Shown here in pieces: positions 2,522 through 50,715 of a stretch of 64,000 bases of DNA (position 1 is the first letter of the stretch; the number at the start of each line of letters is the position of its first letter). The translations under genes and the position numbers were made by a program. Origin of the DNA: Minisyncoccota bacterium (lineage in GTDB: Bacteria; Patescibacteriota; Minisyncoccia; Phycocordibacterales; UBA5272); the NCBI GenBank assembly GCA_041651055.1, contig JBAZJW010000002.1, positions 90,980 to 154,979 on the forward strand. The letters are read 5' to 3'. Below the pieces are notes generated by a model. It made no database searches. It was not told the origin of the DNA and saw nothing but the letters and a program-made list of their open reading frames with translations.

Positions 2522-2947
2522 ATGGCTCACAACTCGTGGGGTAATTTTCAAGTAGCTACCGTCACGGTTGAACCGGGTGGTTATGTAGATGTGTTTCCTA
2601 TACGGTCCAACACTGTTTACAAAAACGTGTCTGTTGGTGTGATACCACTAGATGATCATATCACTTACAAGCACGCTGTTGGCATTTATATGTATGAAGA
2701 GTTAGAAGAGTCACATATATATAATGACGACAGCAAACACATTTCATTTATGACATTGCCAGATAAGATCTTTCCTCCAAATGTAGGATTAAAAACAAAC
2801 CCAGAAATGGTCCGGGCTGCTTTATATGAACCTGCCTTGAACGTAATAAAGATTCGTATAGCAAATGCTGAGGCTGAGACGAGGCATTTCCAGGTGTATG
2901 GTACATTTGAATGCCTTGATACTGTCATGAAAGCTGTAGGTAAGTAA
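2522..2947 (+). CDS. hypothetical protein
   Basis: 141-aa ORF, tightly packed. Confidence 0.4.
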   Translation: MAHNSWGNFQVATVTVEPGGYVDVFPIRSNTVYKNVSVGVIPLDDHITYKHAVGIYMYEELEESHIYNDDSKHISFMTLPDKIFPPNVGLKTNPEMVRAALYEPALNVIKIRIANAEAETRHFQVYGTFECLDTVMKAVGK

Positions 2948-2948
2948 C

Positions 2949-3281
2949 ATGATAAATCACTATAAGTGGGGCCTGCAAGACGGACAAGCAGATCCAGACA
3001 GCGGAAGTGGTGTGCCTGCTGGTTCTGATTATGGTGCTCCAGAGGTGTTTACTGGTGCTTTAGCAGGAGATGTCACACTTACGTTTACGCGAGCCACCAA
3101 GTCTGTGACTATACACAATACGCATGATTCAGAGCACTTGGAGGCGTCTTTGGATGGTGGGTTAACTTGGATTGACTTTGGGCCGTATGGTGAGCGTACC
3201 TATGATGTTAGCATACAGCAACTTATGTTAAGACTGGTAGCTGGCAATAGTTCCTATGCTGTGGTTGGGGTGTTGTCATGA
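2949..3281 (+). CDS. hypothetical protein
   Basis: 110-aa ORF. Confidence 0.35.
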   Translation: MINHYKWGLQDGQADPDSGSGVPAGSDYGAPEVFTGALAGDVTLTFTRATKSVTIHNTHDSEHLEASLDGGLTWIDFGPYGERTYDVSIQQLMLRLVAGNSSYAVVGVLS

Positions 3282-6292: not shown

Positions 6293-7972
6293 ATGCATCG
6301 TTTGCTTATTGCACTATTGCTTCCTATACTGTTGGGTGCATCCCCTCCGTCCGTTCTAGAGGGAGATACTCAAACATTTTTAGGTCCAATAAAAGTAGTG
6401 GGTGAAATTTATCGGTGGTTGGATAGCGTGTTGGGCACGGCTACTTTGGCGACGGTAGCTCCGATAACCTTATACGTAGAGACTACGGGGAACGATTCGA
6501 ATGACTGCCTCTCCGTTAGTACAGCGTGTTTAACTATACAAGAGGCCATCAATAGAATCCCTAAAAATATAGGCCACACAGTATCAATAACGGTTGGATC
6601 TGGTAATTTTGCTGGTTTTGTTGTCAGTGGTTTTATTGTAACAGACCAAAATCAATTTTCTGTTCAGGGCACACTTGGTGCCTATTCTCCTGCAACAGGG
6701 TTGCAAACAGGTGTTGCTGATGGTGCGGGGGGTAGCACCGAAAAACTAGTAGACAGTGATGGTGGATGGACCGTTAACAATCTAAAGGGGTCTCTTTTAA
6801 AGATAGGAACCGAATACAGATTTATTAGGGACAATACAGCTACAGAAATAGAGGTAGTTGGTGCATTCTCTGCTACTTGTAACGGAAAAACTTATGAAAT
6901 TGTTGAGTCTAAAACGGTGATTACTTCCAATGCATCAGTGGGTAGCGCTAGAGTCTATATTACCGCCAATGTAGCACGATCGGGTGGCATTCGAATTCTC
7001 AATTTGAAATCTTCTGGAGGGACATATGGGTTCTTTGCAGATGGGACATCTGGGACGCGTTTTCAATATCTACACGCATATGGTTTCAGTGGTGTTGGAT
7101 TTATAAATCAATTCGTAGATTATGCTACTATATTTGATATAGCCGCTTCCGCTGGTACGGGTACCTCCTACGGCATTTTTATTTCGCACTCACATATGAG
7201 TAGTGTCGGTAGGATGTTTTCATTTTCTAGTACTGGGGCCTACGGTATTAGGGCATACTCCACAAGTATAAATTCGCCGTCTTATTGGGTAGTATATGAT
7301 TTAACTGGCACATCTGTATATGGCATAGCCTTGGAAGCAATGATGAATATGGAATTAACTGGCACCAATAGGATTAAAAATATTACTGGGTCTACAAGTG
7401 TATATGGGGCCGGTTTTTATTCTGGGGCCTATTATAAGATAAGTGGAACGCTACTGATAGATACGATTACTAAAACTGGAGCTGTCGATTTAACTACTGG
7501 CATTGGCTTATATCAAGGACAACCATGTGACGTAAACCTTCACAATATTACAGTAACAAACTGTACTAGTCATGGAATTTCTGCTACAAGATCTACTAGT
7601 ATTATGCTCGTTACTGCTAGCCTTACAAATAACGATGGGTATGGTTTGCATGCCATACAAAATTCTAATATAATTTTTCGTAATGGAACGCAAACTGTTT
7701 CTGGCAATGCCTTAGGAGGAGTATATGCAGGCACTTCGGCCAAGGTTCTTTTAGACAACACAGATGGGTCAAATACTGGATATGGTATAACCGTTGAACA
7801 GGGTGCAAGAGTCACGATTGATAGCGGAACAGGGATTACGGGAACCACAAATAATATTTTGTTAGACGATGTGGAGAAAACCTATGCTGGTGATTTTGCA
7901 GTAAACAAAGACACAGAAATTGGTGTGTATGGCTCTGTTGTACAGCGTTATGATGGGCTCGACTTTATGTAG
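6293..7972 (+). CDS. right-handed parallel beta-helix protein (tailspike/depolymerase-like) with N-terminal signal-like peptide
   Basis: N-terminus MHRLLIALLLPILLGA; repeated N-I-T-V/T-N-C, G-I-S-A, N-S-N-I-I turns typical of the pectate-lyase fold. Confidence 0.5.
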   Translation: MHRLLIALLLPILLGASPPSVLEGDTQTFLGPIKVVGEIYRWLDSVLGTATLATVAPITLYVETTGNDSNDCLSVSTACLTIQEAINRIPKNIGHTVSITVGSGNFAGFVVSGFIVTDQNQFSVQGTLGAYSPATGLQTGVADGAGGSTEKLVDSDGGWTVNNLKGSLLKIGTEYRFIRDNTATEIEVVGAFSATCNGKTYEIVESKTVITSNASVGSARVYITANVARSGGIRILNLKSSGGTYGFFADGTSGTRFQYLHAYGFSGVGFINQFVDYATIFDIAASAGTGTSYGIFISHSHMSSVGRMFSFSSTGAYGIRAYSTSINSPSYWVVYDLTGTSVYGIALEAMMNMELTGTNRIKNITGSTSVYGAGFYSGAYYKISGTLLIDTITKTGAVDLTTGIGLYQGQPCDVNLHNITVTNCTSHGISATRSTSIMLVTASLTNNDGYGLHAIQNSNIIFRNGTQTVSGNALGGVYAGTSAKVLLDNTDGSNTGYGITVEQGARVTIDSGTGITGTTNNILLDDVEKTYAGDFAVNKDTEIGVYGSVVQRYDGLDFM

Positions 7973-8057
7973 TAATTTTCTAAGTGGTAAATTTCTCGCC
8001 GTCCCTTAAATCTTCTCTGTTACCACGCAGTATAATAATCAGCAAATAGGAGGTCCC

Positions 8058-8189
8058 ATGAACAAGCAGACTACCAAGATCCTAAACTCCGTGAAAGAGT
8101 TCATTTACAAGTACAAGATTCCTGTAATTCTTGTTGCTTTACTGGTGGTTGCATCTACCGCAATCACCTGTGCGACCTGCGGTGCTTAG
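8058..8189 (+). CDS. small hydrophobic peptide (43 aa)
   Basis: AGGAGGTCCC-ATG RBS; single TM segment; below the ORF-track size cutoff. Confidence 0.3.
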   Translation: MNKQTTKILNSVKEFIYKYKIPVILVALLVVASTAITCATCGA

Positions 8190-8194
8190 CCGCC

Positions 8195-8395
8195 GTGTAC
8201 GATTTTACACCTATGTGGACACCTAAAATTAGGCGCATAGCCGAGTGTATGCACCAACAGCGCGAGTGGTGGGTGAATCGAAGGTCTTCTAAGGAAACTG
8301 TGCCGTTCGAGGCACTACCAGAATGTGATAAATTGGCCTACAAAATGGTAGCGGAACGCATATTGAAGATCACAGAAGATGAAAAAGACTATTGA
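8195..8395 (+). CDS. small hypothetical protein
   Basis: 66-aa ORF. Confidence 0.3.
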   Translation: MYDFTPMWTPKIRRIAECMHQQREWWVNRRSSKETVPFEALPECDKLAYKMVAERILKITEDEKDY

Positions 8396-8518
8396 AAAGC
8401 TTTTTATTGGTGGTATGAAAGTGTTGGGCACATGCGCGTACGTGTTCTGTTGCTTGTGCGCCTATGTGGATCATAAGATTAAAGAAGGCGATAGGTTAGA
8501 GAAGCTAGGTATGCGAAA

Positions 8519-8764
8519 ATGACACGTCCCGATATAGATAAGCTAGTGCGTGATGTTTATCTGGACCCGAGCGTGCCTTCTCATGCTCTACGTGCAATAG
8601 ACACCTTCGTAAGATACATTCAGCACTTAGAACATGAACTAGATTTTACGGAACCTTATGACGCCCCTGCTAAGATAGCGAAGTTGAAGCTGGAGAAGCA
8701 GTTCGATCCCAGGAACGTGCCGGAGTTTCTAGATATCGTGAGGAAACAACATGACAAAGATTAG
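8519..8764 (+). CDS. hypothetical protein
   Basis: 81-aa ORF. Confidence 0.35.
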   Translation: MTRPDIDKLVRDVYLDPSVPSHALRAIDTFVRYIQHLEHELDFTEPYDAPAKIAKLKLEKQFDPRNVPEFLDIVRKQHDKD

Positions 8765-9212
8765 AGTATATGCAAACCAAGAAGATCTTCAACTCGTTTT
8801 TGGAGACGAACTATTTGGAATGGATATTCTTAATAACGATCCGTGGGCACTGGCGCAATTGTCCGACATCAACATCCTTTCTAATAAAGAACTTCTTGCT
8901 AGCTTTGTTGATGTGAATTTTGAAGGAGAAGGTGGCGTAGTTGTAGCGGCCATTTTCGATGCTTATGACGGCGAATCGTACGACTTTGATACAGTAGTGC
9001 ATCCTAAGTACCAGGGGCGTGGTTTAGGAACACAGCTAATTGAAATAGCTATGGATCGGTTCAAGAGTGAAATATTAGAGATGAATCCTGATGCGAAGTT
9101 ACATTTAGACGTAGTAAACCCGGGCATGGTTGATTTTCTAAAAACGAAGTATGGCCTAGAGGTAAAGGAAGAGGTTGGAAGTCACATAATTATGGGTGCT
9201 ATTCTTGAGTAA
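8751..9212 (+). CDS. GNAT family N-acetyltransferase
   Basis: HPKYQGRGLGTQLIE matches GNAT motif A (Q/RxxGxG/A acetyl-CoA pocket). Confidence 0.55.
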   Translation: MTKIRVYANQEDLQLVFGDELFGMDILNNDPWALAQLSDINILSNKELLASFVDVNFEGEGGVVVAAIFDAYDGESYDFDTVVHPKYQGRGLGTQLIEIAMDRFKSEILEMNPDAKLHLDVVNPGMVDFLKTKYGLEVKEEVGSHIIMGAILE

Positions 9213-9349
9213 CCTTTGCAAATTTTGTCATAAGCCGTTTACGAAAACTAGTTCTAGACAAGTATATTGTAAACGACCGGAATGCATAGCTAGAAAACGC
9301 GCACGGATGCGGTACGTAAAAAACGTGTTAGGAGTCTCGTGGGCAAGAT

Positions 9350-9787
9350 ATGAGAAAAGATAAAATAATACTGTTTCTAGACATAGATGGGGTTCTAATT
9401 TGCAAGGGTGAGGAACAGCCGCGTTTAGAGGCTGTTTCTTCTATAAACAAATTAATAAAAATTTTTGATGCATATATAGTTATAACGTCTGCTAGAAGAA
9501 TTGGAAAATCAACTGAAGAACTTCAAGAAAAAATAGAGAAATACGGTATTTTGGGTATTGTTGTAGGAAAAACAAAAGATGCACCTATTATAAATAGAAG
9601 AGGAAATGATATTTATTCTTACATAAAAGAAAATGGAGTACAAAAGTATGTTGTTGTGGATGACGTAGATCCAATTCAACTGATCCCTCCCTTAGATAAA
9701 AGTTGTGTTTTGCATGTCCCGTTAGGATTTAGGACCGGAATAACACGAGGTATGGTAGACAGATTCTTGGAGAATAGAATAATATGA
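9350..9787 (+). CDS. HAD-superfamily hydrolase-like protein
   Basis: N-terminal FLDIDGVL matches HAD motif I (DxDGxL/T). Confidence 0.45.
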   Translation: MRKDKIILFLDIDGVLICKGEEQPRLEAVSSINKLIKIFDAYIVITSARRIGKSTEELQEKIEKYGILGIVVGKTKDAPIINRRGNDIYSYIKENGVQKYVVVDDVDPIQLIPPLDKSCVLHVPLGFRTGITRGMVDRFLENRII

Positions 9788-10128
9788 CTTCCATTAACCA
9801 TGATCGCACAATACGTATGTTGTATGGTGAGTGTTCTGGGATTGAAGAGTTGGATTGCACTTATTGTGTGTGTACGGTATGTGGATCCTCATATATAGAG
9901 GTGTTCCCTAAGCACGCGTTAGATATCAGCAAAATGAAGAAGCTTACTATTGACCAAGCAAAAAATTTGGGTTTATATGAAGGCGCATATAAGGAGCACC
10001 TTCTGTGTGAAACGTGCCAACAAAAACGAATAAAACACGAGGATATTTTACAGATACTTAGTTTTGTGTTTTGTGTCTTGTCGGTGATTGCATTGACAGT
10101 ACTATTCTCTGTTGGAGGAATTCCTTGA
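9784..10128 (+). CDS. Cys-rich protein with C-terminal TM segment
   Basis: CxxC...CxxC pairs; hydrophobic C-terminus. Confidence 0.35.
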   Translation: MTSINHDRTIRMLYGECSGIEELDCTYCVCTVCGSSYIEVFPKHALDISKMKKLTIDQAKNLGLYEGAYKEHLLCETCQQKRIKHEDILQILSFVFCVLSVIALTVLFSVGGIP

Positions 10129-10595
10129 GTACAAAGCGAAAAGGCTGGCATGAATACTTTATGAATTTGGCTGAACTTACATCAACAAGGGGCACGTGTG
10201 ATCGAGCTAGAGTGGGCTGCGTTCTGGTTAAAGATAAATTAGTTATTGCTGGTGGATATAATGGCTCGCTTCCTGGTGCGGATCATTGTGATGATATAGG
10301 ACACTTTATGCAAGAAGGTCACTGCCGACGCACGAACCATTCGGAAGCAAATATGATAGCTTCCGCAGCCAAACGCGGCGTTTCTACTGATGGTGGAGTT
10401 CTCTACTGTACGCACACTCCATGCATTACGTGCCTAAAATTGCTTGTGGCAGCAGGGGTTCATACTGTATATTATCTTAATGAATATAGGATAGAAGATG
10501 TGCCAGATTTTGTTAAGGAGAAAGTAAGGTTGGTAAAATTCAACAAGAACCTAGACACTCTTAATGAAGTAATTGTTAGAAAGGATTATTTGTGA
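10125..10595 (+). CDS. dCMP deaminase (CMP/dCMP deaminase zinc-binding)
   Basis: W-HEYFM-LA-L-S-R-TC-RARVGCVLV..GYNG; HSEANMI and CTHTPCITC zinc ligands (H-x-E ... PC-x2-C). Start set at TTG 10125 after GGAGG, because the conserved N-terminus precedes the first ATG. Confidence 0.8.
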   Translation: MSTKRKGWHEYFMNLAELTSTRGTCDRARVGCVLVKDKLVIAGGYNGSLPGADHCDDIGHFMQEGHCRRTNHSEANMIASAAKRGVSTDGGVLYCTHTPCITCLKLLVAAGVHTVYYLNEYRIEDVPDFVKEKVRLVKFNKNLDTLNEVIVRKDYL

Positions 10596-11044
10596 TGGAA
10601 GAACTATATGTAAACACGGAGCGTATGAAGCATCGCCCCGATAAACCAAAATCTAATCTTGAATTTTGGAAAGTGTGGGTGCCTGTTATAGTTACGCTTG
10701 TAACTGTGTTTGGCTCTCTTGTTGGTATTTACATCCAGGGAAATAAATCTGCTTCTAAGATCGAGTACATAGTAAGCCAAATCAATGATGCAATAATTCC
10801 TAGGCTAGAAAAAGCACTTGAAGGTAATAATACAGAAATAAAGATTTTGCGTGAGCGGGTGGCTGTTCTAGAAAAAATGAGCGAGGTTCGAAGATCTAGA
10901 GTAGTTCCAACCACATTTGGTTTTGGTAATCCATTGGATCTTCCGGCACCTGCTGTAAAGACGCTTTCTAAACCAGCTACAGAGGCACTAAAGACTTCTA
11001 CTAAATATGATATACCTAGATTGCAACATGAACAGGTAGAGTAA
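10592..11044 (+). CDS. membrane protein with coiled-coil
   Basis: TM segment WKVWVPVIVTLVTVFGSLVGIYI then a heptad-like region. Confidence 0.35.
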   Translation: MMEELYVNTERMKHRPDKPKSNLEFWKVWVPVIVTLVTVFGSLVGIYIQGNKSASKIEYIVSQINDAIIPRLEKALEGNNTEIKILRERVAVLEKMSEVRRSRVVPTTFGFGNPLDLPAPAVKTLSKPATEALKTSTKYDIPRLQHEQVE

Positions 11045-11046
11045 TC

Positions 11047-13341
11047 ATGAAGAAACTGTTAATATCCGCTATTGCTGTTGTTTTTCTGTTTCCGTCCGCT
11101 GCTTATGCTGTTGCCTGCGTATCAAACGGAACTGGTGGTGGCAACTGGAGCGATGAAGCTACATGGACTGACGCCTCGTGCGGTGCAGCACATTTTCCTA
11201 TATCTGGAGATTCTGCTACCATAGCCGCAGGAGACACAGTAACAATAGATGGAGATCTTACGGTAGGCACTTCTCCCGCAAGTGCTGTTACTTATGATTT
11301 AGATATTTCTGGCACGCTGTATTGGCCAAACAATCCAGGCATAGATATGATTTTTACACTACAGTCCTCCATGAGAATAAACGCGGGAGGCATATTCCAG
11401 ATTGGGGATTCTGGAACCCCGTTAAATTCTGCAGTTCGTGCCCACATACTGTTTAATAATACATCTCCTGTCCCCGATCAAAAATACAAAATTCTTGTAA
11501 ATGGTGGCAAATTGTATGTGTATGGGAACTCAAGTTATTTTATGACATCAGGAGCAAATTACAGGGCAAGGATTTTTGGGTGCATTCCGGACTGCAACGC
11601 CGGTGCCGGTAGAACTATAATGCTAGACCGTGCTGTATATTGGCCTGCATCAGCCAGTCTCACACACGATGCGATATTGATCGGAATAGGAGGCAACGTA
11701 TCAACTGCCCCGGCTGCTGGTGACGATGGGGAACTAATTACTAGTTGGGGATCTCCTGGTTCTAGCAGCATCAACGGGGTAACACTTACAGAAAATCATA
11801 TGATTGGGGATATTGTAGTAAACGTGTCCCGAAACGTTCTCTTTCAGGCGGATAGTGCTACTTATCATAGCATAGTAGAAACAACTGCTACAAATAATCC
11901 ATACGATATAAATTATGCGAGGTTCGATGAATTTGGAGATAACACTACCACAGGATCTGGTATAACATTCAATGCTGCATCTAATACTGTTGGAACAATA
12001 AATCATGTATCCGTAACTAATTGTGAAGATGGTGCCGGTACTACTTGTTTTTATATTAACTCTTCTGGATGGACTAAATTTGAAGGAAATACGGCATATG
12101 AATCAAGATCAACTGGAAATGGATTTTATTTTTTAGGTAATCAGTATCCAGCAGGAACATTTGAAATAAAAGATTGTACATATATTGAGGGACCACTAGG
12201 AAATGGAGATGGTATTGAATTCGCTTCAAACACTGTAAAAACTGATTTAACTGGATTTTGGTCATCTAACGCAAATTCTGGAATAAAAATAACTGCATCA
12301 TATACTGATACTTATTCTTGTATTCTTCATGCTACCACTACTTATGGGGTACAAATTACAAGCCCAAATTCTACGTATTATCAGTATGTAAAATTAAAAA
12401 TAGATTCATGTGAAATAAGGAATAGTGAATCGAATTCAATATATTTGCTCTCATTTGCAAATTTAATTTATTCAAATAATGATATAGATGGAGCAGAAGC
12501 TACTTGCTTCAATGTTGCTGGTAGTTTTTATGGTTATTTTGAAAATAATACTTACGATAGATGCAATACGAGCAATACAACAAACAGAGCAGGATTTGAA
12601 ATACTTAATTCTGACAATAATTTTGATGTATATGCAGTAAATGAATCATTTGGAGCAACAACCGCAAACAATAAATCAAATATAAATATAGATTCACCAA
12701 CATTCAATGATACAATTACTGGATCTAATAGATATGTATGCAACAATTGCTTACTCGCAGAAGTTAATAATCCGATTACATGTAGCTCAATGCCAACAGA
12801 TGGAATAATTATTCCATGTCTTACATATAATAATGCCGTGTATATTCCAGAGGAATCTTTTTATTCATTACATAATAAAGATCAAGTTGAAAATGCAAAT
12901 TACGGATGGGGTCCTGGGGGAATGGTATTTACTAGAGAAACCGTGACTGTCGTGGATAATACATTGAATGTTAAAGTTCAGCCAGGAAACGCTACTGACT
13001 ATGGGTACCTTCCTTTAGGAACTATAAGCGTTGTGCAAGGACAAACTGTTACTGTAAACGTACAAATACGCAAAGACGAATCTCAAAGTGCAGGATTTCG
13101 GCCAAGATTGGGTTTAGAAGGGGCAGGATTTAACAGGTACACCACATACGATGAAATGAGCGATGCTATAAACACATGGGAGACGGTCACTGTCACTGGT
13201 GTGGCCACTTACTCTGGAAGCGTTCATATTTATTTAGGCGTTAAAAATAATTTGTCTGGTGCGAACAACTATGAGCCGGAATGGCCACCAACACTAGAAA
13301 TATATGCAGATGGAATCAGTGTTACAAAGACAGGGCCATGA
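11047..13341 (+). CDS. beta-helix protein (tailspike/depolymerase-like) with signal-like peptide
   Basis: MKKLLISAIAVVFLFPSAAYA; many N-x-T/S, IxNxxI beta-helix-type repeats. Confidence 0.5.
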   Translation: MKKLLISAIAVVFLFPSAAYAVACVSNGTGGGNWSDEATWTDASCGAAHFPISGDSATIAAGDTVTIDGDLTVGTSPASAVTYDLDISGTLYWPNNPGIDMIFTLQSSMRINAGGIFQIGDSGTPLNSAVRAHILFNNTSPVPDQKYKILVNGGKLYVYGNSSYFMTSGANYRARIFGCIPDCNAGAGRTIMLDRAVYWPASASLTHDAILIGIGGNVSTAPAAGDDGELITSWGSPGSSSINGVTLTENHMIGDIVVNVSRNVLFQADSATYHSIVETTATNNPYDINYARFDEFGDNTTTGSGITFNAASNTVGTINHVSVTNCEDGAGTTCFYINSSGWTKFEGNTAYESRSTGNGFYFLGNQYPAGTFEIKDCTYIEGPLGNGDGIEFASNTVKTDLTGFWSSNANSGIKITASYTDTYSCILHATTTYGVQITSPNSTYYQYVKLKIDSCEIRNSESNSIYLLSFANLIYSNNDIDGAEATCFNVAGSFYGYFENNTYDRCNTSNTTNRAGFEILNSDNNFDVYAVNESFGATTANNKSNINIDSPTFNDTITGSNRYVCNNCLLAEVNNPITCSSMPTDGIIIPCLTYNNAVYIPEESFYSLHNKDQVENANYGWGPGGMVFTRETVTVVDNTLNVKVQPGNATDYGYLPLGTISVVQGQTVTVNVQIRKDESQSAGFRPRLGLEGAGFNRYTTYDEMSDAINTWETVTVTGVATYSGSVHIYLGVKNNLSGANNYEPEWPPTLEIYADGISVTKTGP

Positions 13342-13616: not shown

Positions 13617-14167
13617 CTCCGTGGGGTGATGGGCTTCCTGGGTTAGATGACGTCCCGATTGGTGGGTGGGGCGACGGACTTCCTCTTGGGCCGTCTACTG
13701 TTGGACCTCAAGTCGTGTCTGCTGTGGCTGTGGATTCTACTACCACAAGACTTACCTACAATAAAGAAGTACAACATTCAAACCCAGGTAACATCAACGA
13801 TTCTTTGAATCCAGCGAATTATGCTTTTTCTGGTGGTTTATCTGCGGTGAGTGTGTCTGTTAACCAAGCCAATCCAACTGTAGTAGATATTATAGTAACG
13901 CCTGCAATGGAGAACATTAACTACACTGTTGTAGTGTCTAATGTAGAAGATCTTGCGGGCAATCTGGTAGATCCACTATATAATTCTGCTACGTACTTGG
14001 GACCGGAAAATGACGAAGCCAACGATTTTATTGCTGAAATACTCATTGGTGATGAGGTGGTGTGGAGTGCAAACAGTTTTGTAAACCAACAAAAAATAAA
14101 AATTGACGTGGCACGATTTTACGGTAAATTTCCTCTAACGTTTAGGATAAGGGGTATTAGGATATGA
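13613..14167 (+). CDS. Ig-like domain structural protein
   Basis: Beta-sandwich-like composition (VVSAVAVDSTTTRLTY...). Confidence 0.35.
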   Translation: MTPWGDGLPGLDDVPIGGWGDGLPLGPSTVGPQVVSAVAVDSTTTRLTYNKEVQHSNPGNINDSLNPANYAFSGGLSAVSVSVNQANPTVVDIIVTPAMENINYTVVVSNVEDLAGNLVDPLYNSATYLGPENDEANDFIAEILIGDEVVWSANSFVNQQKIKIDVARFYGKFPLTFRIRGIRI

Positions 14168-14427
14168 GAAAAAGAGACGTGGACTGCAAGCGCATAAGAG
14201 AGCGCATTGTTGCTCTGCTTGAAAAGGAACCGTGGCTTACTAATTACACCATCAGCCAACGATTTGGATGCCCTGTTGACTATGTAGGAGACGTAAGACG
14301 TTCTGCCGGTAAAAAGTCTCCTAGAACTGAAACACTTACTGATACAGACTTCAAGAAATCAAGATTTTCAAAGCTAATCAAAAAACTAAGAAACAACCCT
14401 CATTACATAACTGAGCGTAAGAAATAA
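14164..14427 (+). CDS. putative winged-helix DNA-binding protein
   Basis: Basic 87-aa protein; IVALLEKEPWLTNYTISQRFG resembles an HTH. Confidence 0.35.
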   Translation: MRKRDVDCKRIRERIVALLEKEPWLTNYTISQRFGCPVDYVGDVRRSAGKKSPRTETLTDTDFKKSRFSKLIKKLRNNPHYITERKK

Positions 14428-14495
14428 TAGTACACAAAGACATACTAAATGTTGATGCAGGCATACTTGTACATCAAGTAAATCTGTGCGGGGTT

Positions 14496-14849
14496 ATGGG
14501 TGCTGGTGTAGCCAAGCAAATTAGACTAAAGTATCCACAAGTATTTACAGAGTACAGTGCAGCTTGCGCACACAATAACTGTGGATTGGGTGATGTTCAA
14601 TTTGTTGAAATAAATGAGTATTTGTACGTGTGTGATTTGTTCGGTCAAAGAGGGTATGGCAGAAATGAACTACACACTGATTATGCAGCACACAGAAAAG
14701 CGTGGCCGCTCATTAAGAACAAGTCGAGTGAACTGCAATTAAAAGTGTTTGCGCCTTACATGATAGGGTGTGGTTTAGGTGGTGGTAACTGGGACGTCTT
14801 GCGACCGATAATAGAGTCAGCGTGCGATGTAGTATGGTGCCGAAAGTGA
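14496..14849 (+). CDS. macro domain protein (ADP-ribose binding/processing); true start unresolved
   Basis: GAGVAKQI (GGGVagAI) and FAPYMIGCGLGGGNW (PaIstGvyG) macro motifs. The open frame extends upstream to 14421 and encodes the conserved KDIL-VDAGILVHQVNL N-terminus (GDIT/NAAN region), but has no ATG/GTG/TTG there. Confidence 0.55.
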   Translation: MGAGVAKQIRLKYPQVFTEYSAACAHNNCGLGDVQFVEINEYLYVCDLFGQRGYGRNELHTDYAAHRKAWPLIKNKSSELQLKVFAPYMIGCGLGGGNWDVLRPIIESACDVVWCRK

Positions 14850-14865
14850 AAAGGAAAGGTACACA

Positions 14866-15711
14866 ATGGAAGCCATAGTTGTAGACAAATTTATTGATAA
14901 ACGCACCGACCCAGTAAACCTGACGGTCTATGGGGACCTGCACGAAGACTCACGCATGTGTAACATAAAGAAGCTGCACGAACATATGAATCATCGAGCG
15001 AAATTAAAGAATGCTATGTTTGTTGGTATTGGGGATATGAGTGACTGGATTTTACCTTCTGATAAAAGATACACACCATCAAATACACGTATAGATGCAA
15101 TACACCCAGGGTACGATGATTTGATTGATCGTGAAATAATGCGACAGGCAGAGTTCTATAAGAAGTTTCCGTGGGCTGTGCTGGGAATGGGCAACCATTG
15201 TCTGAAACCACTAAAAGTGCATTACACCAACCCAGCAGAGAGACTGGCACAAATACTTGGATGTAAATATGGTGGGTACAGTGGATTTTTGAGGATTCGC
15301 ATAAGACAAAAAGGTAAGATGAAGAATTATGTATCTAGTGATATCGTTGGCTCAGTTACCATACTCTACCATCATGGTGCGTGGGGTGGAAGAGTAATAA
15401 AGGGTTTTGGTGGTGCCAGGGATTGGGGTAGGGCGCATGAAGGATGGGACGTTCTTTGTTATGGGCACTCACATCAAACAGTAGTACATCAAGAAGTCAG
15501 AAAAATGATGACACACAGAGGAAACATCGTAGACAAAGACGTGTATATAGTAAACTGCGGCACATTTTACTCTGGTGTTGCGGATGGTGGTCCGCCATCC
15601 TATGCAGAGAGAGGTGGCTTTCCACCAGTTTCGGTGGGAGCCCCTCTTATTACCATAACTCCGTGTGAACAATCCATACCACACATATCCATAAGTGTTG
15701 GAGACTGCTAA
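14866..15711 (+). CDS. calcineurin-like metallophosphoesterase
   Basis: Motifs GDLH, GIGDMSD, GNHC, HHG, GHSH match metallophosphoesterase motifs I-V. Confidence 0.7.
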   Translation: MEAIVVDKFIDKRTDPVNLTVYGDLHEDSRMCNIKKLHEHMNHRAKLKNAMFVGIGDMSDWILPSDKRYTPSNTRIDAIHPGYDDLIDREIMRQAEFYKKFPWAVLGMGNHCLKPLKVHYTNPAERLAQILGCKYGGYSGFLRIRIRQKGKMKNYVSSDIVGSVTILYHHGAWGGRVIKGFGGARDWGRAHEGWDVLCYGHSHQTVVHQEVRKMMTHRGNIVDKDVYIVNCGTFYSGVADGGPPSYAERGGFPPVSVGAPLITITPCEQSIPHISISVGDC

Positions 15712-15712
15712 T

Positions 15713-16510
15713 ATGAACATTGGAATAGCTGGGTTCGGGTTTGTGGGTCAGGCTGTGTATGCTTCTTTGAAACCTGAGTACAAAAAACAGTGCATTATTT
15801 ATGATCCCCCGAAAGGTTTTGATAATTTTGACCAACTGATTGCCAGCGATTTTGTATTTTGCTGTTTGCCGTCACCAACCATAAAAGACGAAAACTTAGG
15901 AATAAGTGGTCTTAGACAGGACTTTTCTGCATATGAACAGTTTTTCAAAGCAGTAATTGGTCAATTAAAAAACAAACAAACTGTATTTATAGTAAAAAGT
16001 ACAGTGCTGTATAGCAATATACTCCCTTATTTATCACAGCTAAACATAGTAATGAATCCAGAGTTTCTGAACCAAAATACGTCTATTGAAGATTTTATGA
16101 ATCAAAAATGGGTGTTGTTGGGAGGAAGGACGGACCGCTGTTGCCAAGTTAGGGATATGTATGATGAGTGCTTTGACCTTGGGTACACTATATGTGAATT
16201 TTGTAGTGAAAAGGAAGCCATAGAGGCAAAATACATTCACAACTTGTACCATGCGTATAAAGTACTGTTTTGGAACTACGTACAAGAAGTAACCGGCAAT
16301 GAACGAAAGATTTATGATTTGTACAAGAAAGTGTTGAAAGAACCAACTGATATGGCCAAAATTTGTGCAGATGGCTCACCTGGATTTGGTGGAGCATGCT
16401 TTCCAAAGGATTTGGCCGCCTTTGACGGAGAATTTCCGCATATGTTGACCAGGTTCATGCAAGAGTACAATCACCGATTAAGGTCGATGGGCTTCAAAAC
16501 AAATCTTTAG
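15713..16510 (+). CDS. UDP-glucose/GDP-mannose dehydrogenase family-like protein (short form)
   Basis: GIAGFGFVGQAV Rossmann motif; VFIVKSTVLYSNI; catalytic-Cys motif GFGGACFPKDL; only ~266 aa, so C-terminal domain is missing. Confidence 0.55.
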   Translation: MNIGIAGFGFVGQAVYASLKPEYKKQCIIYDPPKGFDNFDQLIASDFVFCCLPSPTIKDENLGISGLRQDFSAYEQFFKAVIGQLKNKQTVFIVKSTVLYSNILPYLSQLNIVMNPEFLNQNTSIEDFMNQKWVLLGGRTDRCCQVRDMYDECFDLGYTICEFCSEKEAIEAKYIHNLYHAYKVLFWNYVQEVTGNERKIYDLYKKVLKEPTDMAKICADGSPGFGGACFPKDLAAFDGEFPHMLTRFMQEYNHRLRSMGFKTNL

Positions 16511-28872: not shown

Positions 28873-29934
28873 ATGGCAATGTCTACGCAGAGGATTGTGT
28901 GTCCCGCAATAGTACTGGCGGTTCACCCAGAAGATAGACTTGTGGACGTGAAGTGGGCAGATGCCGAAGGTGGCAGAAAAGGCGTAGTGATGATTAATGA
29001 CATGGGGTCTTACTCCATGCCAAACATAGGAGACTCTGTTCTGGTGCTTGGTACTGGTGTAGATTATTTTTGTGTAGGTAAAATAGAATACGGATACAAA
29101 GCCAAACTTAACGGAAAGCAGCGCGTGCAGGGATCTAGCACGCCTCTGAAGTATAAAAATGTTGGTCCGGGAGAAATCATAATCAACCACATACGCAAAC
29201 TGTCATGGCTAAAACTTGCTAATAGCGGCGACTTTTCGCTAATGAATGGATTCATTGAAGGATTTAAATATCTAAGAAGCATAAGAACAGCCCGCGTATT
29301 GGGTCGTACCATAGAACTAGTAGCTAATGGTGTTAAGATTGGGGCAGGTACGGTTATTAGAAATATACCAGGAAAAGGCGAACAGCCGATTACCGGGGAG
29401 TCTGGCGGAAAAGCTCTAGAATACTACATACAGATAGCATATAACAGCATACAGTCAGTGCGTTTTCATTTGGGTGAGATTCGTGATATGACTTTGGGGG
29501 TAGTGCCGGAAGTAAGTTCACTTGGTGGTAGAGTAAAAGCACTATTGGAGGTTACACAGGCCGCAGTAAGAATGGGATTCTTGGTTATTGATGAAGCTGG
29601 TAATGTCGAGCTGACATCAAAAGTGGCTACGACTGTGGTAGGTGGGACAGAGGTAAAACTTGGTGGTGTGGCTGCACAGGAGCCAGTAATAAAAGGACAG
29701 TCTTATTCTACTGCGGAAATAAATTTTTTGTCGAAGATGACTTCGTTTGTAACTGCGCTGCAGGCTTACATAACTGCTTGTTCTACAGAAAAGACAACGG
29801 CCCCCACACTGTTAACTGAAACTGCTGCTAGTGCCGTTGCGTTTATGCCACTTATAGCTGAATTTCTGTCTGCTATTTCAGAATTCAACGGAAAGATAAC
29901 ACCGGCACTGTCTGCTGTAGTAAAAACTACTTGA
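28873..29934 (+). CDS. baseplate central spike, gpV/VgrG-like
   Basis: AIVLAVHPEDRLVDVKWADAEGG...VMINDMGSYSMPNIGDSVLVLGTGVDYFCVGKI resembles the P2 gpV OB-fold N-terminus. Confidence 0.5.
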   Translation: MAMSTQRIVCPAIVLAVHPEDRLVDVKWADAEGGRKGVVMINDMGSYSMPNIGDSVLVLGTGVDYFCVGKIEYGYKAKLNGKQRVQGSSTPLKYKNVGPGEIIINHIRKLSWLKLANSGDFSLMNGFIEGFKYLRSIRTARVLGRTIELVANGVKIGAGTVIRNIPGKGEQPITGESGGKALEYYIQIAYNSIQSVRFHLGEIRDMTLGVVPEVSSLGGRVKALLEVTQAAVRMGFLVIDEAGNVELTSKVATTVVGGTEVKLGGVAAQEPVIKGQSYSTAEINFLSKMTSFVTALQAYITACSTEKTTAPTLLTETAASAVAFMPLIAEFLSAISEFNGKITPALSAVVKTT

Positions 29935-30850
29935 TTGCAGACATTTTACTAACTACAAAATTTACTACTTCTGGAGATACTTCCATCTTTGTGCCTGCGG
30001 CTTGTCTGTGACCGCCACCACCAAATTTATTAGCGATTTCTGATACATCTACATCACTTTTTTCAGTATATAGTGAAACCCTGTTTTCATCTGCGTTTAC
30101 TATTATTACATAGTCTATTTCATTGTGACTTTTCAGAAATTTGTGACCGGTTTCTGGTTGATACTGTGTTGCTAATATTACTGAATATCTGTGCCCGTTA
30201 GGATCACAAAAAACTGTAATTGGCGAATTCTTTTCTACTGTTCTGGTTATTTGTTCGTTCCTTCTTTCTCTGGTTGCTTCTATAATCTCTTTCATTTTCT
30301 CTAGATCTGCATTAATGTTGATGTACATGTGTTTTACAAAAGAGTTAAACCCGAGTACCTGCAACAAATCATTTAATCCTTCTCCCCTAAATCTGTGATG
30401 TGACGATAATTTCCACATGTCATAGGCATCAATTGCCTTTGAAAATATGTATTTGCTGTCTGACTCATTTATTTTTGCGTCATCGTTCTGAATTTTCATG
30501 CAAAAATTGTAAACAAGGGATGTTGCACACCTATTTGGATTAAAAGACGACCCAAAATCATACTTTGAAAGCCACTTCTTTGTTTTGTGGTGATCTATAA
30601 TCAATACCTGGTTTTTGTATTTGTGTGCATTTATTTGATCGCATACTTCAATAGATGGGCAAATGTCGGTAATCATAAGCAGAGTAGAATCGTCTAACTG
30701 CTCCAGGGCCTGCAATACATGCTTGTCTATCTTTTCGTATCCACACTGTTGGTATCTTGTTACGTTAAAAAATAATTTCAGCAATATCAAACACCCGGCA
30801 CCGTCTAAATCTGAGTGTGTTATTGCTATTACTTGTTTTTCGTTGTCCAT
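29927..30850 (-). CDS. DHH-DHHA1 phosphoesterase (NrnA-like nanoRNase/pAp phosphatase family)
   Basis: ITHSDLDGAGC (HxxxDxDG), LIIDHH (DHH motif), FGGGGHRQAAG (DHHA1 GGGH). Start set at ATG 30850, which has GGAGG upstream. Confidence 0.7.
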   Translation of the reverse strand: MDNEKQVIAITHSDLDGAGCLILLKLFFNVTRYQQCGYEKIDKHVLQALEQLDDSTLLMITDICPSIEVCDQINAHKYKNQVLIIDHHKTKKWLSKYDFGSSFNPNRCATSLVYNFCMKIQNDDAKINESDSKYIFSKAIDAYDMWKLSSHHRFRGEGLNDLLQVLGFNSFVKHMYININADLEKMKEIIEATRERRNEQITRTVEKNSPITVFCDPNGHRYSVILATQYQPETGHKFLKSHNEIDYVIIVNADENRVSLYTEKSDVDVSEIANKFGGGGHRQAAGTKMEVSPEVVNFVVSKMSAIK

Positions 30851-30929
30851 GTGTTCCTCCATTACCTTGCCAGAAGTGGTACCGTATAGGACACGGTAGT
30901 CAACACAAGAATTTATTTTGGAGAGCGGC

Positions 30930-31415
30930 ATGATTGTAAAATGGTATGCAATGGCTTTTGCTGACATAGAGAATAAGGAGTGTTTGTGTGCGTGGTTGGC
31001 TGGATTGGGTGAACCACCAAAGCAGCAGCTAAAAACCTTGATTCAGGTTGCAAATGGGCTTATTCAAACGGCTAAGGCTGTATACATACTCATAAACACT
31101 GATTTTGAAGATCTGTTGAAAAAAGAGGCTTTAGAGAAGTTACTTGAAGTATATAAATTAGCCACAAAACCGCTAGAGATGCCGTTAAATTATTTGTCGG
31201 CGGTGACTGCCCCTGCGGCTGATTGTCCACCAGTAGCACAAATTGCCGCCACTATGTATGATCTGAAAAATACTTTATTGGCACCAGTAAAAGATTTGGA
31301 AGAAGAAATAGAAGCATATATTAGTTCCATAGAACAGTCACAGGCGAATTCTGAGTTTTTAGATATGTTGTCTAGTGTATTGGATGACATAAGCCAAGCT
31401 ATAAATGAGTGTTGA
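30930..31415 (+). CDS. hypothetical baseplate-region protein
   Basis: GGAGAG RBS then ATG. Confidence 0.35.
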   Translation: MIVKWYAMAFADIENKECLCAWLAGLGEPPKQQLKTLIQVANGLIQTAKAVYILINTDFEDLLKKEALEKLLEVYKLATKPLEMPLNYLSAVTAPAADCPPVAQIAATMYDLKNTLLAPVKDLEEEIEAYISSIEQSQANSEFLDMLSSVLDDISQAINEC

Positions 31416-33576: not shown

Positions 33577-34170
33577 ATGAATATCTGGTGGTGCTCACCT
33601 AACGGAAACAACGTCTTTGGCGTTGGAAGCAGGGAAAACCCGTTCCAAACCATCGAAAAAGCCTTGTCTGTGTTTCAAGATGGAGATCAGATTAGACTGC
33701 TACCAGGAACGTTTACTCCTACAGACAGTGTGTTGATTAGTGGTAAAAGTGGATCTATATTTGCAGATGTACCAAAAGCTAGCTTTATACAGCCGCAAAA
33801 GACACTCAATCACCGGGCTGGGATAGCTGTAATAGATGCAGAAAGGTTTACTATAGCTGGCATAGTATTGTTACAAGCTTCTGACTCTAGCGGCAATTTG
33901 ATGGGTATTTATGTTAATAATATAGAGAAATTTCTGTGTCTAACCTGCGATGTAAAGAATTTCACAGTTCCGTCTGGAGATGCTATTGGAATTTTTGCGT
34001 CTGGTGGTGGACGAGTAGAAAACTGTACAGTAAGTAACTTGAACGGCGCAGGAAACAAAACTATTGGAATTTGGACTATAGGTATAGTGCCAATAGATTG
34101 TCACACAGAGGAATCTTCCGGTGTGAATTACTTCCGTGGGATGCTGATAGAGGGGTTAAATTATCCTTGA
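33577..34170 (+). CDS. beta-helix (pectin-lyase fold) N-terminal domain protein
   Basis: ENPFQTIEKALSVFQDGDQIRLLPGTFT is a typical beta-helix cap motif. Confidence 0.4.
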   Translation: MNIWWCSPNGNNVFGVGSRENPFQTIEKALSVFQDGDQIRLLPGTFTPTDSVLISGKSGSIFADVPKASFIQPQKTLNHRAGIAVIDAERFTIAGIVLLQASDSSGNLMGIYVNNIEKFLCLTCDVKNFTVPSGDAIGIFASGGGRVENCTVSNLNGAGNKTIGIWTIGIVPIDCHTEESSGVNYFRGMLIEGLNYP

Positions 34171-34781
34171 TAACTGCTTCTTTAATACGTGGTAATGGTT
34201 ATTTGCCAGGAAATGCCTCTGTTGGTGGAGTGGTGTTCTTTAGCTTGACCGATAGCAACCCACAGAACGTGCTGTGGAATCTAGAAAGTGCACCTAATGG
34301 ATCTGTGGCCAGACTTTTTAATACGAACGGTGCAACCACCAAGTTGTTGGACATAGATAAATATGGCGTATACTTTGTAAAGGCAAAATTGTTTGTTGGT
34401 ACCCCAACAGAAAAAGAGTATTCCTATTCAGTATCGGTACCTCAAACTGTACACAACGTAATCCCCCCGGAACCGGTGTTTGAGGCAAGTGACCGGGTTA
34501 GAAACTTCAATTTTGAATTGCCCGGTGAATTTTTTGGGGAGGCACACTACTGGAATACAGAAGATGACAACGGCATTTTGTTTGGCGGGGGAGGTGCGAC
34601 CCGTGGTAGAATTGAGCATCCTATTGGCTACGATAAAGATACTGGATTTATATTTTGTTTGGGGGATGATTTGAATGAGGAGTCTGTGTTCTACAGAGAC
34701 ACACTATTTTCGATATCGCAAGTTGTAGATTTTAGCAATATTGAAACACTAGAAATAGCATTGAAGTTTAGAAAAGGATAA
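34071..34781 (+). CDS. overlapping -1 frame ORF (possible continuation of 33577..34170)
   Basis: No ATG; frame opens at 34038; 100-nt overlap with upstream gene. Confidence 0.3.
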   Translation: MDYRYSANRLSHRGIFRCELLPWDADRGVKLSLITASLIRGNGYLPGNASVGGVVFFSLTDSNPQNVLWNLESAPNGSVARLFNTNGATTKLLDIDKYGVYFVKAKLFVGTPTEKEYSYSVSVPQTVHNVIPPEPVFEASDRVRNFNFELPGEFFGEAHYWNTEDDNGILFGGGGATRGRIEHPIGYDKDTGFIFCLGDDLNEESVFYRDTLFSISQVVDFSNIETLEIALKFRKG

Positions 34782-42929: not shown

Positions 42930-45077
<2,148 letters not shown>

Positions 45078-46354: not shown

Positions 46355-46427
46355 TTATTGTATGGGACCGGTGGGATTCGGACCCACATTCCCTTGATTA
46401 AAAGTCAAGTGCGTTACCAATTGCGCC
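46355..46427 (-). tRNA. tRNA-Lys (anticodon UUU)
   Basis: 73 nt GGGACCGTGGCGCAATTGGTAACGCACTTGACTTTTAATCAAGGGAATGTGGGTCCGAATCCCACCGGTCCCA. 7-bp acceptor stem, anticodon stem CTTGA/TCAAG with loop CTTTTAA, T-stem GTGGG/CCCAC; T-loop TCCGAAT has C rather than U at position 55. Confidence 0.8.
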
Positions 46428-46452
46428 ACGGTCCCGTATTACCAAAGATCAA

Positions 46453-49496: not shown

Positions 49497-50715
49497 ATTA
49501 GAACAAGCTAAATGTACGATGGTTAATTCATCTTTATTTTTCAATGTTTTACTTTCTTTGTGCATAAGACTTTCAAATACCGTCTCTATCCAACACATGT
49601 GCAGGTCACTTTGCTAAATACTACATTAGAAATCTGTCGTCAAGTCTATAATAAAACATTGGGTATGAGAAAATATACTTACGAGACTGAGAAAAAGTCT
49701 TTATCTTTGTACGATACTCACAACCTATTAACTAAATGGAAAAAGGATAGTGTTCATTGGAACAGTGTTTATTCACAAGTACTAACTAATGTACAAGTCC
49801 GAGTCGATTTAGCCTATAAAGCTTTCTTTCGCAGAGTTAAAGCTAAGCAAACTCCTGGTTTTCCGCGTTTCAAGGGCAAGGGGCGTTATGATAGCTTTAC
49901 TTTTCCTCAAGCTAGTAATCAAGGTGCTAAAATCGTTGGAGGTGGTCTTAGACTCAGCAAGATCGGTATTATATCTACAGTCTTTCATCGTCCAGTCCAA
50001 GGCAAAATCAAGACGATCACTATACGCAAATCATCTACTAACAAGTGGTATGCCTATATCAATGTAGAAATAGATCCTGTACGTTTACCAGCAAATGACT
50101 TGGCAGTAGGTATAGATTTAGGTATAAAGACTTTTGCTGTCTTGTCCAATGGTGAGACTGTACCCAACCCAAGATTTTTCAAGAGATCAGAAAAGAAATT
50201 AGCTAAAGTACAACGCAAGTATTCAAAGCTTGAAAAAGGATCAAGTAAGAGACGTGCGTATCGTAAAGTCGTAGCACGAGTCTATGAAAAGATTTCAAAT
50301 CAACGCAAAGATTTTGCTCATAAACTTAGCAGAAGTCTCGTTCATCAGTTTGGTACAGTGGTGTTCGAGGATCTCAACATACGAGGCATGATACAAGATG
50401 GTCACTTAGCAAAAAGTATCCATGACGTAGCTTGGCATCAGCTAGTACAATACACTATCTACAAAGCGGAAGAGGCTGGTAGGAGTGTAATACTAGTAGA
50501 TCCAAGAAACACGTCGAAAAAGTGCAGCAGATGTGGTAGCATAAAAGAGGATCTAACGCTTGATGACAGGACTTACATTTGTACGAGGTGTGGCTTGGTC
50601 TTAGATCGTGACTTCAACGCATCCATAAATATCTTGGCGCTGGGGCTGCAGCGCCGGGGGCGCTGTGCCCCGCGTAGACGTGTAGACCTAAGCACGTAAC
50701 AGCCACGAGCACACG
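49497..50715 (+). mobile_element. IS200/IS605-family tnpB-only element (approximate ends)
   Basis: Bounded on the left by the end of the promoter cassette and on the right by GC-rich hairpins at the tnpB 3' end (GGCGCTG-GGGCTG-CAGCGCC; GGGGC-GCTGT-GCCCC), typical of the right-end/omegaRNA scaffold. Confidence 0.45.
49560..50699 (+). CDS. tnpB: TnpB (IS605 OrfB) RNA-guided endonuclease
   Basis: FKYRLYPT...; RuvC-I GIDLGIKTFA; RuvC-II FEDLNIRGM; CSRCG...CTRCG zinc finger; RuvC-III DRDFNASINIL. Confidence 0.85.
   Translation: MHKTFKYRLYPTHVQVTLLNTTLEICRQVYNKTLGMRKYTYETEKKSLSLYDTHNLLTKWKKDSVHWNSVYSQVLTNVQVRVDLAYKAFFRRVKAKQTPGFPRFKGKGRYDSFTFPQASNQGAKIVGGGLRLSKIGIISTVFHRPVQGKIKTITIRKSSTNKWYAYINVEIDPVRLPANDLAVGIDLGIKTFAVLSNGETVPNPRFFKRSEKKLAKVQRKYSKLEKGSSKRRAYRKVVARVYEKISNQRKDFAHKLSRSLVHQFGTVVFEDLNIRGMIQDGHLAKSIHDVAWHQLVQYTIYKAEEAGRSVILVDPRNTSKKCSRCGSIKEDLTLDDRTYICTRCGLVLDRDFNASINILALGLQRRGRCAPRRRVDLST

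Follow-up and report, generated by a model that had tools for sequence, protein, structure and literature searches.

SCO6735 of Streptomyces coelicolor removes the ADP-ribose that DarT attaches to thymidine in DNA; its Gln85 stands for the catalytic lysine of DarG and TARG1 and is positioned by a conserved asparagine, the mutation Q85A abolishes activity and the N27S mutant is almost inactive (PMC9411070). PhiKZ gp104 (AdfM) removes DarT2 modifications from DNA and protects the phage, and its N23A mutation lowers activity (PMC13309987). Here, we describe a macrodomain gene (hereafter macro) at positions 14421–14849 of a 64,000-nucleotide stretch of contig JBAZJW010000002.1 ('the window' denotes the whole of this stretch). 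Its predicted product is reminiscent of these proteins, and its reading frame contains no canonical start codon until past the conserved N-terminal region. This start-codon anomaly is genuine, well above chance and singular; as to its mechanism, rare reinitiation at AUA must be weighed against recent inactivation of the gene, the second being nearly as likely.

The macrodomain and its closest described relatives

The frame and the codons that define the class of the protein are as follows.

14421..14849, + strand: complete open macro-domain frame of 142 codons plus TGA at 14847–14849, predicted to encode an orphan DarG/SCO6735-type macrodomain
14472..14483, + strand: codons H18-Q19-V20-N21, with N21 equivalent to SCO6735 Asn27 and AdfM Asn23, and H18 to SCO6735 His24
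14646..14648, + strand: Gln76 codon, at the position of the catalytic lysine in DarG (K80) and TARG1 (K84) and equivalent to SCO6735 Gln85
14766..14786, + strand: phosphate-binding loop G116-C-G-L-G-G-G122, with G118 equivalent to SCO6735 Gly128

Read in the frame of 14421, the translation begins EIIVHKDILNVDAGILVHQVNLCGVMGAGVAKQIR... An AlphaFold (AF2) model built from a 20-sequence alignment (predicted local distance difference test score, pLDDT, 94.6; predicted template modelling score, pTM, 0.89) has the three-layer alpha/beta/alpha macro fold, with Foldseek returning a probability of 1.00 and template modelling (TM) scores of 0.82–0.90 to BT1257 of Bacteroides thetaiotaomicron, DarG and SCO6735, and of 0.77–0.84 to Poa1p and TARG1. 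The same proteins were recovered by profile search of the PDB (BT1257, 2FG1/2AFC; SCO6735, 5E3B; DarG, 5M3I and 5M31/5M3E; TARG1; Poa1p). Q76 and N21 are invariant across 20 family members. PHROGs assigned the protein to phrog_335, and tblastn of the phage collection matched approximately 600 phage records, all below 60 % identity.

SCO6735 and BT1257 are the best PDB sequence matches (E value 8e-14 with the single sequence, 2e-26 with the profile) and, like the macro protein, are stand-alone domains of approximately 140–160 amino acids (aa) in which the pocket positions Q76, N21 and H18 and, within the GCGLxGG loop, G118 have their counterparts in Gln85, Asn27, His24 and Gly128. They differ in that identity to the window protein is only ~24–26 %, and in that the window gene is phage-borne rather than chromosomal, lacks a canonical start and encodes an enzyme of predicted activity. 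The mobile loop is five residues longer in the SCO6735/BT1257 subclass than in DarG and TARG1; in pairwise alignments, the macro loop after Q76 is two residues shorter than that of SCO6735 and approximately one longer than that of T. aquaticus DarG, and is thus intermediate.

AdfM, likewise an orphan macrodomain from a phage and of comparable length, is 28 % identical to the window protein over 133 residues (E value 4e-16). Its third residue aligns to the first of the window protein ('EFIIGKDIFNV' versus 'EIIVHKDILNV'), and its N23 corresponds to N21. However, AdfM keeps the DarG-type lysine ('FPTKDNW') where the window protein has glutamine, and its gene starts with ATG. AdfM also belongs to the chimallivirus PhiKZ, whereas nothing here points to a phage nucleus or import in the phage of the window.

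The macrodomain part of DarG is the best-ranked model in both NCBIfam (antitoxin_DarG) and PADLOC. The likeness to DarG (DarTG2; 5M31, 5M3E, 5M3I; NF048014) lies in its N-terminal macrodomain (Foldseek TM 0.82–0.84; PADLOC E value 1.6e-18 over profile positions 6–134 of 329; NCBIfam E value 5e-17). In contrast to DarG, the macro protein has Gln76 in place of Lys80 (T. aquaticus numbering), lacks the C-terminal DarT-binding domain (142 aa against ~330) and reaches only 62 bits against the NCBIfam cut-off of 250, over profile positions 5–65 only. Neither gene flanking macro matches any PADLOC model or resembles DarT, so no darT is adjacent. We therefore rejected the possibility that the macro protein is the DarG antitoxin itself, given the absence of the catalytic lysine, the C-terminal domain and an adjacent DarT.

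The protein is a complete stand-alone ALC1-like macrodomain of the DarG/TARG1/SCO6735/BT1257 group, of the SCO6735 type with glutamine for the catalytic lysine, and we regard it as a phage-borne, Gln-type, DarG-like macrodomain because of the correspondence of Q76 to Gln85 and of N21 to Asn27, the fold match and the phage genes around it. It is a probable DNA or protein de-ADP-ribosylase. The enzyme type is already known, and a counter-defence role, for which AdfM provides a published precedent, is likely.

Coding sequence upstream of the first ATG

The 5′ end of the frame, its candidate start codons and the gene that it overlaps are listed below.

14164..14427, + strand: upstream 87-aa gene, encoding a basic protein with a weak winged-helix-like match; stop TAA at 14425–14427
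14418..14420, + strand: in-frame TAA closing the macro frame upstream, seven codons before D7, the commonest initiator-Met position in homologues
14424..14426, + strand: ATA, preferred candidate start, in a 4-nt ATAA overlap with the upstream stop; profile score 171.1 bits
14427..14429, + strand: ATA, second candidate start, in a 1-nt TAATA overlap with the upstream stop; 170.4 bits (compare the TAGTG junction at 59748)
14463..14465, + strand: ATA used by the NCBI Prokaryotic Genome Annotation Pipeline (PGAP) for MFA5132658.1, 128 aa, 'MLVHQVNL...'
14496..14498, + strand: ATG, first canonical start codon of the macro frame, at codon 26, the family's conserved internal Met26

The frame is open from 14421, as the original prediction held; it does not, however, directly follow the stop of the 87-aa gene, but the in-frame TAA at 14418–14420, upstream of which lie several more stops. 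The 87-aa gene terminates within macro at 14425–14427, so that the two share 7 nt, with the 87-aa gene +1 relative to the macro frame, as had been described. Inspection of the open reading frames (ORFs) confirmed that the first ATG, GTG or TTG is found only at 14496, past the conserved N-terminal region. Before codon 26, the start codons of translation table 11 are limited to ATA (14424, 14427, 14442 and 14463) and CTG (14484). A single A-to-G change at 14426 would yield an ATG together with a TGA stop for the upstream gene. ATG 14496 is the start used in the JGI, ENA and Logan records (117 aa, P0001). No other gene without a canonical start, and no other broken start or broken frame, was found in the 64-kb window.

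Several results identify the 25 codons before ATG 14496 as part of the gene. With the extension (14421–14846), the protein matches Pfam Macro (PF01661) from profile position 1 at 25.6 bits, above the gathering score of 22; from ATG 14496, the match begins at profile position 10 and falls below that score, at 20.9 bits. A family profile built from 19 homologues, with the window's own sequence left out, scores the full ORF at 171.2 bits and the form from ATG 14496 at 135.8 bits, a gain of 35 bits. When the 25 N-terminal residues were shuffled (200 shuffles), the score was 139.8±2.2 bits with a maximum of 147.9, placing the real ORF ~14 standard deviations higher. Of the residues encoded before ATG 14496, Q19 and N21 never vary across the 20-sequence alignment and H18 and V20 hardly do; M26, encoded by that ATG, is itself a nearly invariant internal residue. 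In the AF2 model, codons 1–25 supply two beta strands (residues 3–4 and 14–21). All 16 invariant family residues are kept, with one conservative deviation at a nearly invariant column and no signs of decay. The upstream 25 codons are homologous coding sequence: the claim that a conserved N-terminal segment is encoded before the ATG is borne out by the profile gain, the strands and N21, the homologues do not start at the position of that ATG and the residues of the binding pocket are retained.

The start codons of the homologues are ordinary. At 22/22 homologue loci, an ATG, GTG or TTG lies ~1–20 codons upstream of the aligned N-terminus, and most of these also keep the internal Met; with two further loci that had been called short, all 24 loci for which DNA was read have a canonical start no later than the N-terminal strand. 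Among 102 homologous proteins, the equivalent of D7 is usually residue 8 or 9, the mode being a Met seven residues before it, and gene calls starting within six residues of it are confined to three. One of these three shortest-called homologues, P0022, starts five residues before D7. Two candidates for further startless members were rejected: the gene caller missed an upstream ATG in P0068, and in P0004 an ATG with a strong Shine–Dalgarno (SD) sequence (AAGGAGG) stands directly before 'DIL'. The window gene is thus the sole member without a canonical start among the ~125 family members examined. Separately, in three IMG/VR loci (L021, L022 and L023; 3001–3377), the macro homologues are split over two frames (residues 3–49 and 70–132), the copy being frameshifted or disrupted in each of the three samples.

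Proposed initiation at AUA and the rival explanations

We tentatively favour, with confidence a little short of even, initiation of the macro protein at AUA 14424 (or 14427), coupled to the stop codon of the 87-aa gene. Of the suggestions made in the original prediction, non-canonical initiation coupled to the upstream stop, or else a recent loss of the start, fits best, given the ATA in an ATAA or TAATA overlap. Reinitiation is proposed because ATA overlaps the TAA of the 87-aa gene: ribosomes finishing that gene would reinitiate on the overlapping AUA (ATAA or TAATA), in the same geometry as the ATG, GTG or TTG at ten other junctions in the window. Codon 14424 is most likely the start, with 14427 as the alternative. 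The product would be ~140–141 aa long and would be made at a small fraction of ATG-level output. It may then strip ADP-ribose from DNA thymidines (DarT2-type) and/or from proteins and, like PhiKZ AdfM, serve in counter-defence as an orphan-antitoxin-like enzyme.

The 4-nt overlaps in the window comprise five ATGA, four GTGA and one TTGA (at 34167), and there is one 1-nt TAGTG junction; as half of the 4-nt overlaps use GTG or TTG, weak starts at stop overlaps appear normal for this phage. Between the 87-aa and macro genes, neither a promoter-like or terminator-like site nor an unusual RNA structure was detected, and the search for known RNA elements gave none. Bacterial genes with near-cognate starts include infC and pcnB, which use AUU. 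The macro gene resembles these in that its only plausible initiator is an AUN near-cognate codon; it differs from them in that the codon overlaps an upstream stop, and reinitiation takes the place of de novo 30S binding in the proposed route. In E. coli reporters, initiation at AUA reaches ~1–2 % of that at AUG (bioRxiv 10.1101/063800). It is on account of the ATA–stop overlap, the tight gene packing, the lack of separating signals and this level of AUA activity that low-level initiation at AUA is favoured.

Several observations weigh against initiation at 14424 or 14427. Before these codons, SD-like pairing amounts to a weak −3.1 kcal/mol, where the median for genes is −4.4 and the background −2.4, although several overlapping genes of the window are no better in this respect. 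AUA is a very poor initiator in the bacteria tested. There is no relative closer than 49 % identity, so an old, selected ATA and a fresh lesion are not separable, and megablast against phages returned no close relative of the start region. An intact ORF is equally expected after a very recent loss of the start. Finally, neither DarT nor any other ADP-ribosyltransferase has a known link with the phage.

The rival that survives best is such a recent loss, by a G-to-A transition in an ancestral ATGA or TAATG or by removal of one to three codons through recombination, which would leave a silent, or nearly silent, nascent pseudogene; we consider this possible, if somewhat unlikely. It would suit the standing of macro as the only family member examined without a canonical start, the restoration of ATG by one transition at either ATA (a G at 14426 keeping a TGA for the upstream gene) and the position of the macro-frame TAA at 14418–14420, where homologues commonly have their Met. 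The 142-codon ORF is, however, intact with its 16 invariant residues kept, which is weak evidence against a very recent event, and partial expression from ATA would blur the line between start loss and the preferred AUA initiation.

The location of the 5′ end also bears on start loss. This genome segment has a single relative, contig L031 of a hydrocarbon metagenome, which has in common with the window the genes for a beta-helix protein, 111-aa, 184-aa and 87-aa proteins and a UDP-glucose-dehydrogenase-like protein. In L031, the 87-aa homologue (P0105, 64 % identity) has its own stop and is followed by an RlaP nucleotidyltransferase gene, and an Acb2/Tad1-hairpin gene (E value 5.8e-11) separates the 184-aa gene from the dehydrogenase-like gene, in the slot where the window has the 87-aa, macro and metallophosphoesterase (MPE) genes. 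As DNA homology between the window and L031 ends at the stop codon of the 87-aa gene, with different cargo beyond it in L031, the 5′ end of macro lies on a module boundary, and start loss at such a recombination boundary would be in keeping with this. The first codons of macro, ATG included, may have been lost on its arrival there. Under AUA initiation, too, the arrangement probably goes back to the joining of a macro cassette to the end of the 87-aa gene at the module boundary, or to an ancestral ATGA or TAATG in which one G became A.

A stronger form of the AUA reading holds that the missing ATG is itself selected: the macrodomain would be made exclusively by ribosomes coming off the 87-aa gene, through obligate AUA reinitiation or a stop-stimulated −1 slip that yields a fusion of a DNA-binding domain with the macrodomain, and macro output would be tied to that of the 87-aa gene; we think this improbable.

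It is slightly more doubtful still that a shortened protein is the real product, either 117 aa from ATG 14496 or 128 aa from ATA 14463, with a binding or regulatory rather than catalytic role. Both forms exist as database annotations, and ATG 14496 has the best SD-like pairing among the candidates (−4.5 kcal/mol); this ATG, however, encodes the conserved internal Met, and the GGGG that precedes it belongs to the conserved C-x-G-V-M-G codons. The 117-aa form would lack Asn21, His18 and two core strands, and should be inactive because it is without Asn21 and these strands. ATA 14463 has neither SD-like pairing (+0.6 kcal/mol) nor a stop overlap, and starting there would cost ~15 bits and strand beta1. 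Either form leaves the conservation of codons 1–25 unexplained, and N-terminal truncation as the true state, which the original prediction had also raised, is thus the less likely outcome.

That the true phage has ATG at 14424 or 14427, the deposited base being an error or a minority allele, is very unlikely. A single base of a metagenome assembly decides the matter, and exact-pattern scans with N at 14426 and 14429 returned nothing from viral, metagenome or genome collections, and hence no second independent sample of the stretch. Nevertheless, consensus substitution errors are rare, no other start or frame is broken in the 64 kb, and the JGI, ENA, Logan and NCBI records all lack a longer, ATG-started product. 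A sequencing frameshift, suggested previously, does not fit either, since the frame lacks only a start codon and is closed by stops upstream of 14421.

The weakest of the explanations is a −1 frameshift, programmed or fortuitous, at the last Lys codon(s) of the 87-aa gene (AAG AAA TAA), giving a 228-aa fusion of the basic, winged-helix-like 87-aa protein with the macrodomain. The frame relationship is right (upstream +1), the 7-nt shift window (14421–14427) ends at a stop codon that would slow decoding, tRNA-Lys(UUU) on AAA could by its sequence re-pair with GAA via G–U and the phage has a tRNA-Lys(UUU) gene (46363–46435, − strand), the single tRNA gene of the window. However, the slip would have to occur on AAG or AAA within 14419–14427, where there is no X XXY YYZ heptamer and a structure that could stimulate it is also missing (fold z=−0.84). 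None of the macro homologues is extended at its N-terminus by anything like the 87-aa protein (best E value 1.0), and the 87-aa gene stands alone in L031, with its own stop and beside an unrelated gene, so the recoding envisaged in the original prediction is not borne out.

Non-canonical starts throughout the genome were considered and rejected, every other ORF chain in the window having an ATG, GTG or TTG; the gap at 7972–8519 holds ordinary small genes. The ORF at 34167–34781 (+ strand) is without any ATG, and the ORF list starts it at TTG 34071 with a 100-nt overlap; TTG 34167, in a TTGA overlap with the stop of the preceding gene, is the likelier start.

Neighbouring genes, phage setting and implications

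Downstream of macro, the following features were identified.

14851..14859, + strand: AAGGAAAGG, Shine–Dalgarno-like site of the MPE gene
14866..15711, + strand: 281-aa MPE with an ATG and SD of its own, from a divergent family found mostly in phages and metagenomes

The description of this protein as a phosphoesterase with all five motifs was confirmed, as motifs I–V are invariant columns in 25 sequences (D24/H26, G56-D57, G109-N110-H111, H170 and H201/H203); of the superfamily motifs (DxH, GD, GNH(D/E), H and GHxH), the third reads GNHC in the window. The match to Pfam PF00149 (Metallophos) is just under the gathering score (20.8 bits against 21.5), and the family profile returned no PDB sequence match. 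The AF2 model (pLDDT 87) resembles predicted viral calcineurin-like phosphoesterases (Foldseek TM 0.79–0.82), but in the PDB its fold finds weak matches only (P. putida MPE, with probability 0.98 and TM 0.31–0.42), and only two distant matches were found in cultured phages. With good matches limited to predicted viral structures, the MPE was not assigned to any characterised subfamily.

The MPE is a separately translated neighbour in an accessory region and not part of a conserved module. No MPE homologue occurs within 3 kb of the macro gene in loci L001–L030, nor was a macro gene seen near MPE homologues in the precomputed Pfam calls of four contexts, where no direct tblastn was made; a conserved macro–MPE operon was rejected. 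A 254-aa MPE-like protein of L031 was considered as an orthologue of the window MPE and rejected. The original prediction had the two proteins acting as a pair on ADP-ribose adducts or signals, or in reversing ADP-ribosylation; reversal is supported for the macrodomain through its DarG/SCO6735 class, but the functional pairing is not, as the adjacency is not conserved. A shared role in ADP-ribose metabolism is speculative.

Besides genes for Baseplate_J and for beta-helix, Laminin_G and G8 fibre-like proteins, the window carries those for a glycosyltransferase, TnpB and a single tRNA, and its PHROG matches are very few. It is part of a divergent contractile-tailed phage genome in which macro sits in a variable accessory slot. 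The 183,779-bp source contig is deposited in a Candidatus Paceibacterota metagenome-assembled genome (MAG; locus tags WC444_05045 to WC444_05055). We read this MAG contig as phage because of Baseplate_J, the fibre-like beta-helix proteins and the dense co-oriented small genes; it would be either a mis-binned phage or the phage of a candidate phyla radiation (CPR) bacterium.

Beyond the MPE lies a gene for a 265-aa UDP-glucose/GDP-mannose dehydrogenase-like protein (15713–16510, + strand; L031 3081–3836, 54 % identity), which covers Pfam positions 74–178 of the NAD-binding domain and the central domain and has no C-terminal domain. L031 encodes, in addition to the Acb2/Tad1-hairpin gene (2846–3088), a TnpB (681–1874) and type I-C-like cas3, cas5d and csd1 (9075–12270). 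The TnpB of the window is a 379-aa protein (OrfB_IS605/Cas12f-like TNB; 49560–50699, + strand) with a GTG start, that of L031 being the second. A 715-aa bpMoxR/AAA_5 ATPase (42930–45077, − strand) has a Hom_end match (318–391) between its AAA (6–116) and AAA lid (562–630) regions and probably represents a MoxR ATPase that contains an intein; GC content in the window is highest here, at 0.545. A DHH/DHHA1 phosphoesterase gene (NrnA/RecJ-like; 29927–30967, − strand) lies inside an otherwise + strand structural block, and a 783-aa protein (51018–53369, − strand) has a weak Eco57I-type methylase match (23.4 bits, just under the gathering score).

For annotation, the consequence is that three pipelines produced two different truncated macro proteins (117 and 128 aa), each without part of the fold, so that the gene would be mis-scored or overlooked in automatic surveys for anti-defence functions. 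Public annotation (NCBI PGAP) already invokes a non-canonical ATA start. One gene with ATA for ATG is a curiosity unless shown to be selected; if selection did act here, a phage would offer a natural case of an anti-defence gene selected for AUA initiation or recoding, in which a potentially harmful de-ADP-ribosylase is held at a fixed low ratio to its upstream partner. If the protein is made at all, it would be a Gln-type, SCO6735-like counterpart of the phage anti-DarT2 macrodomain AdfM, from a very divergent uncultured phage, suggesting that phages have recruited both catalytic flavours of the DarG-like fold.

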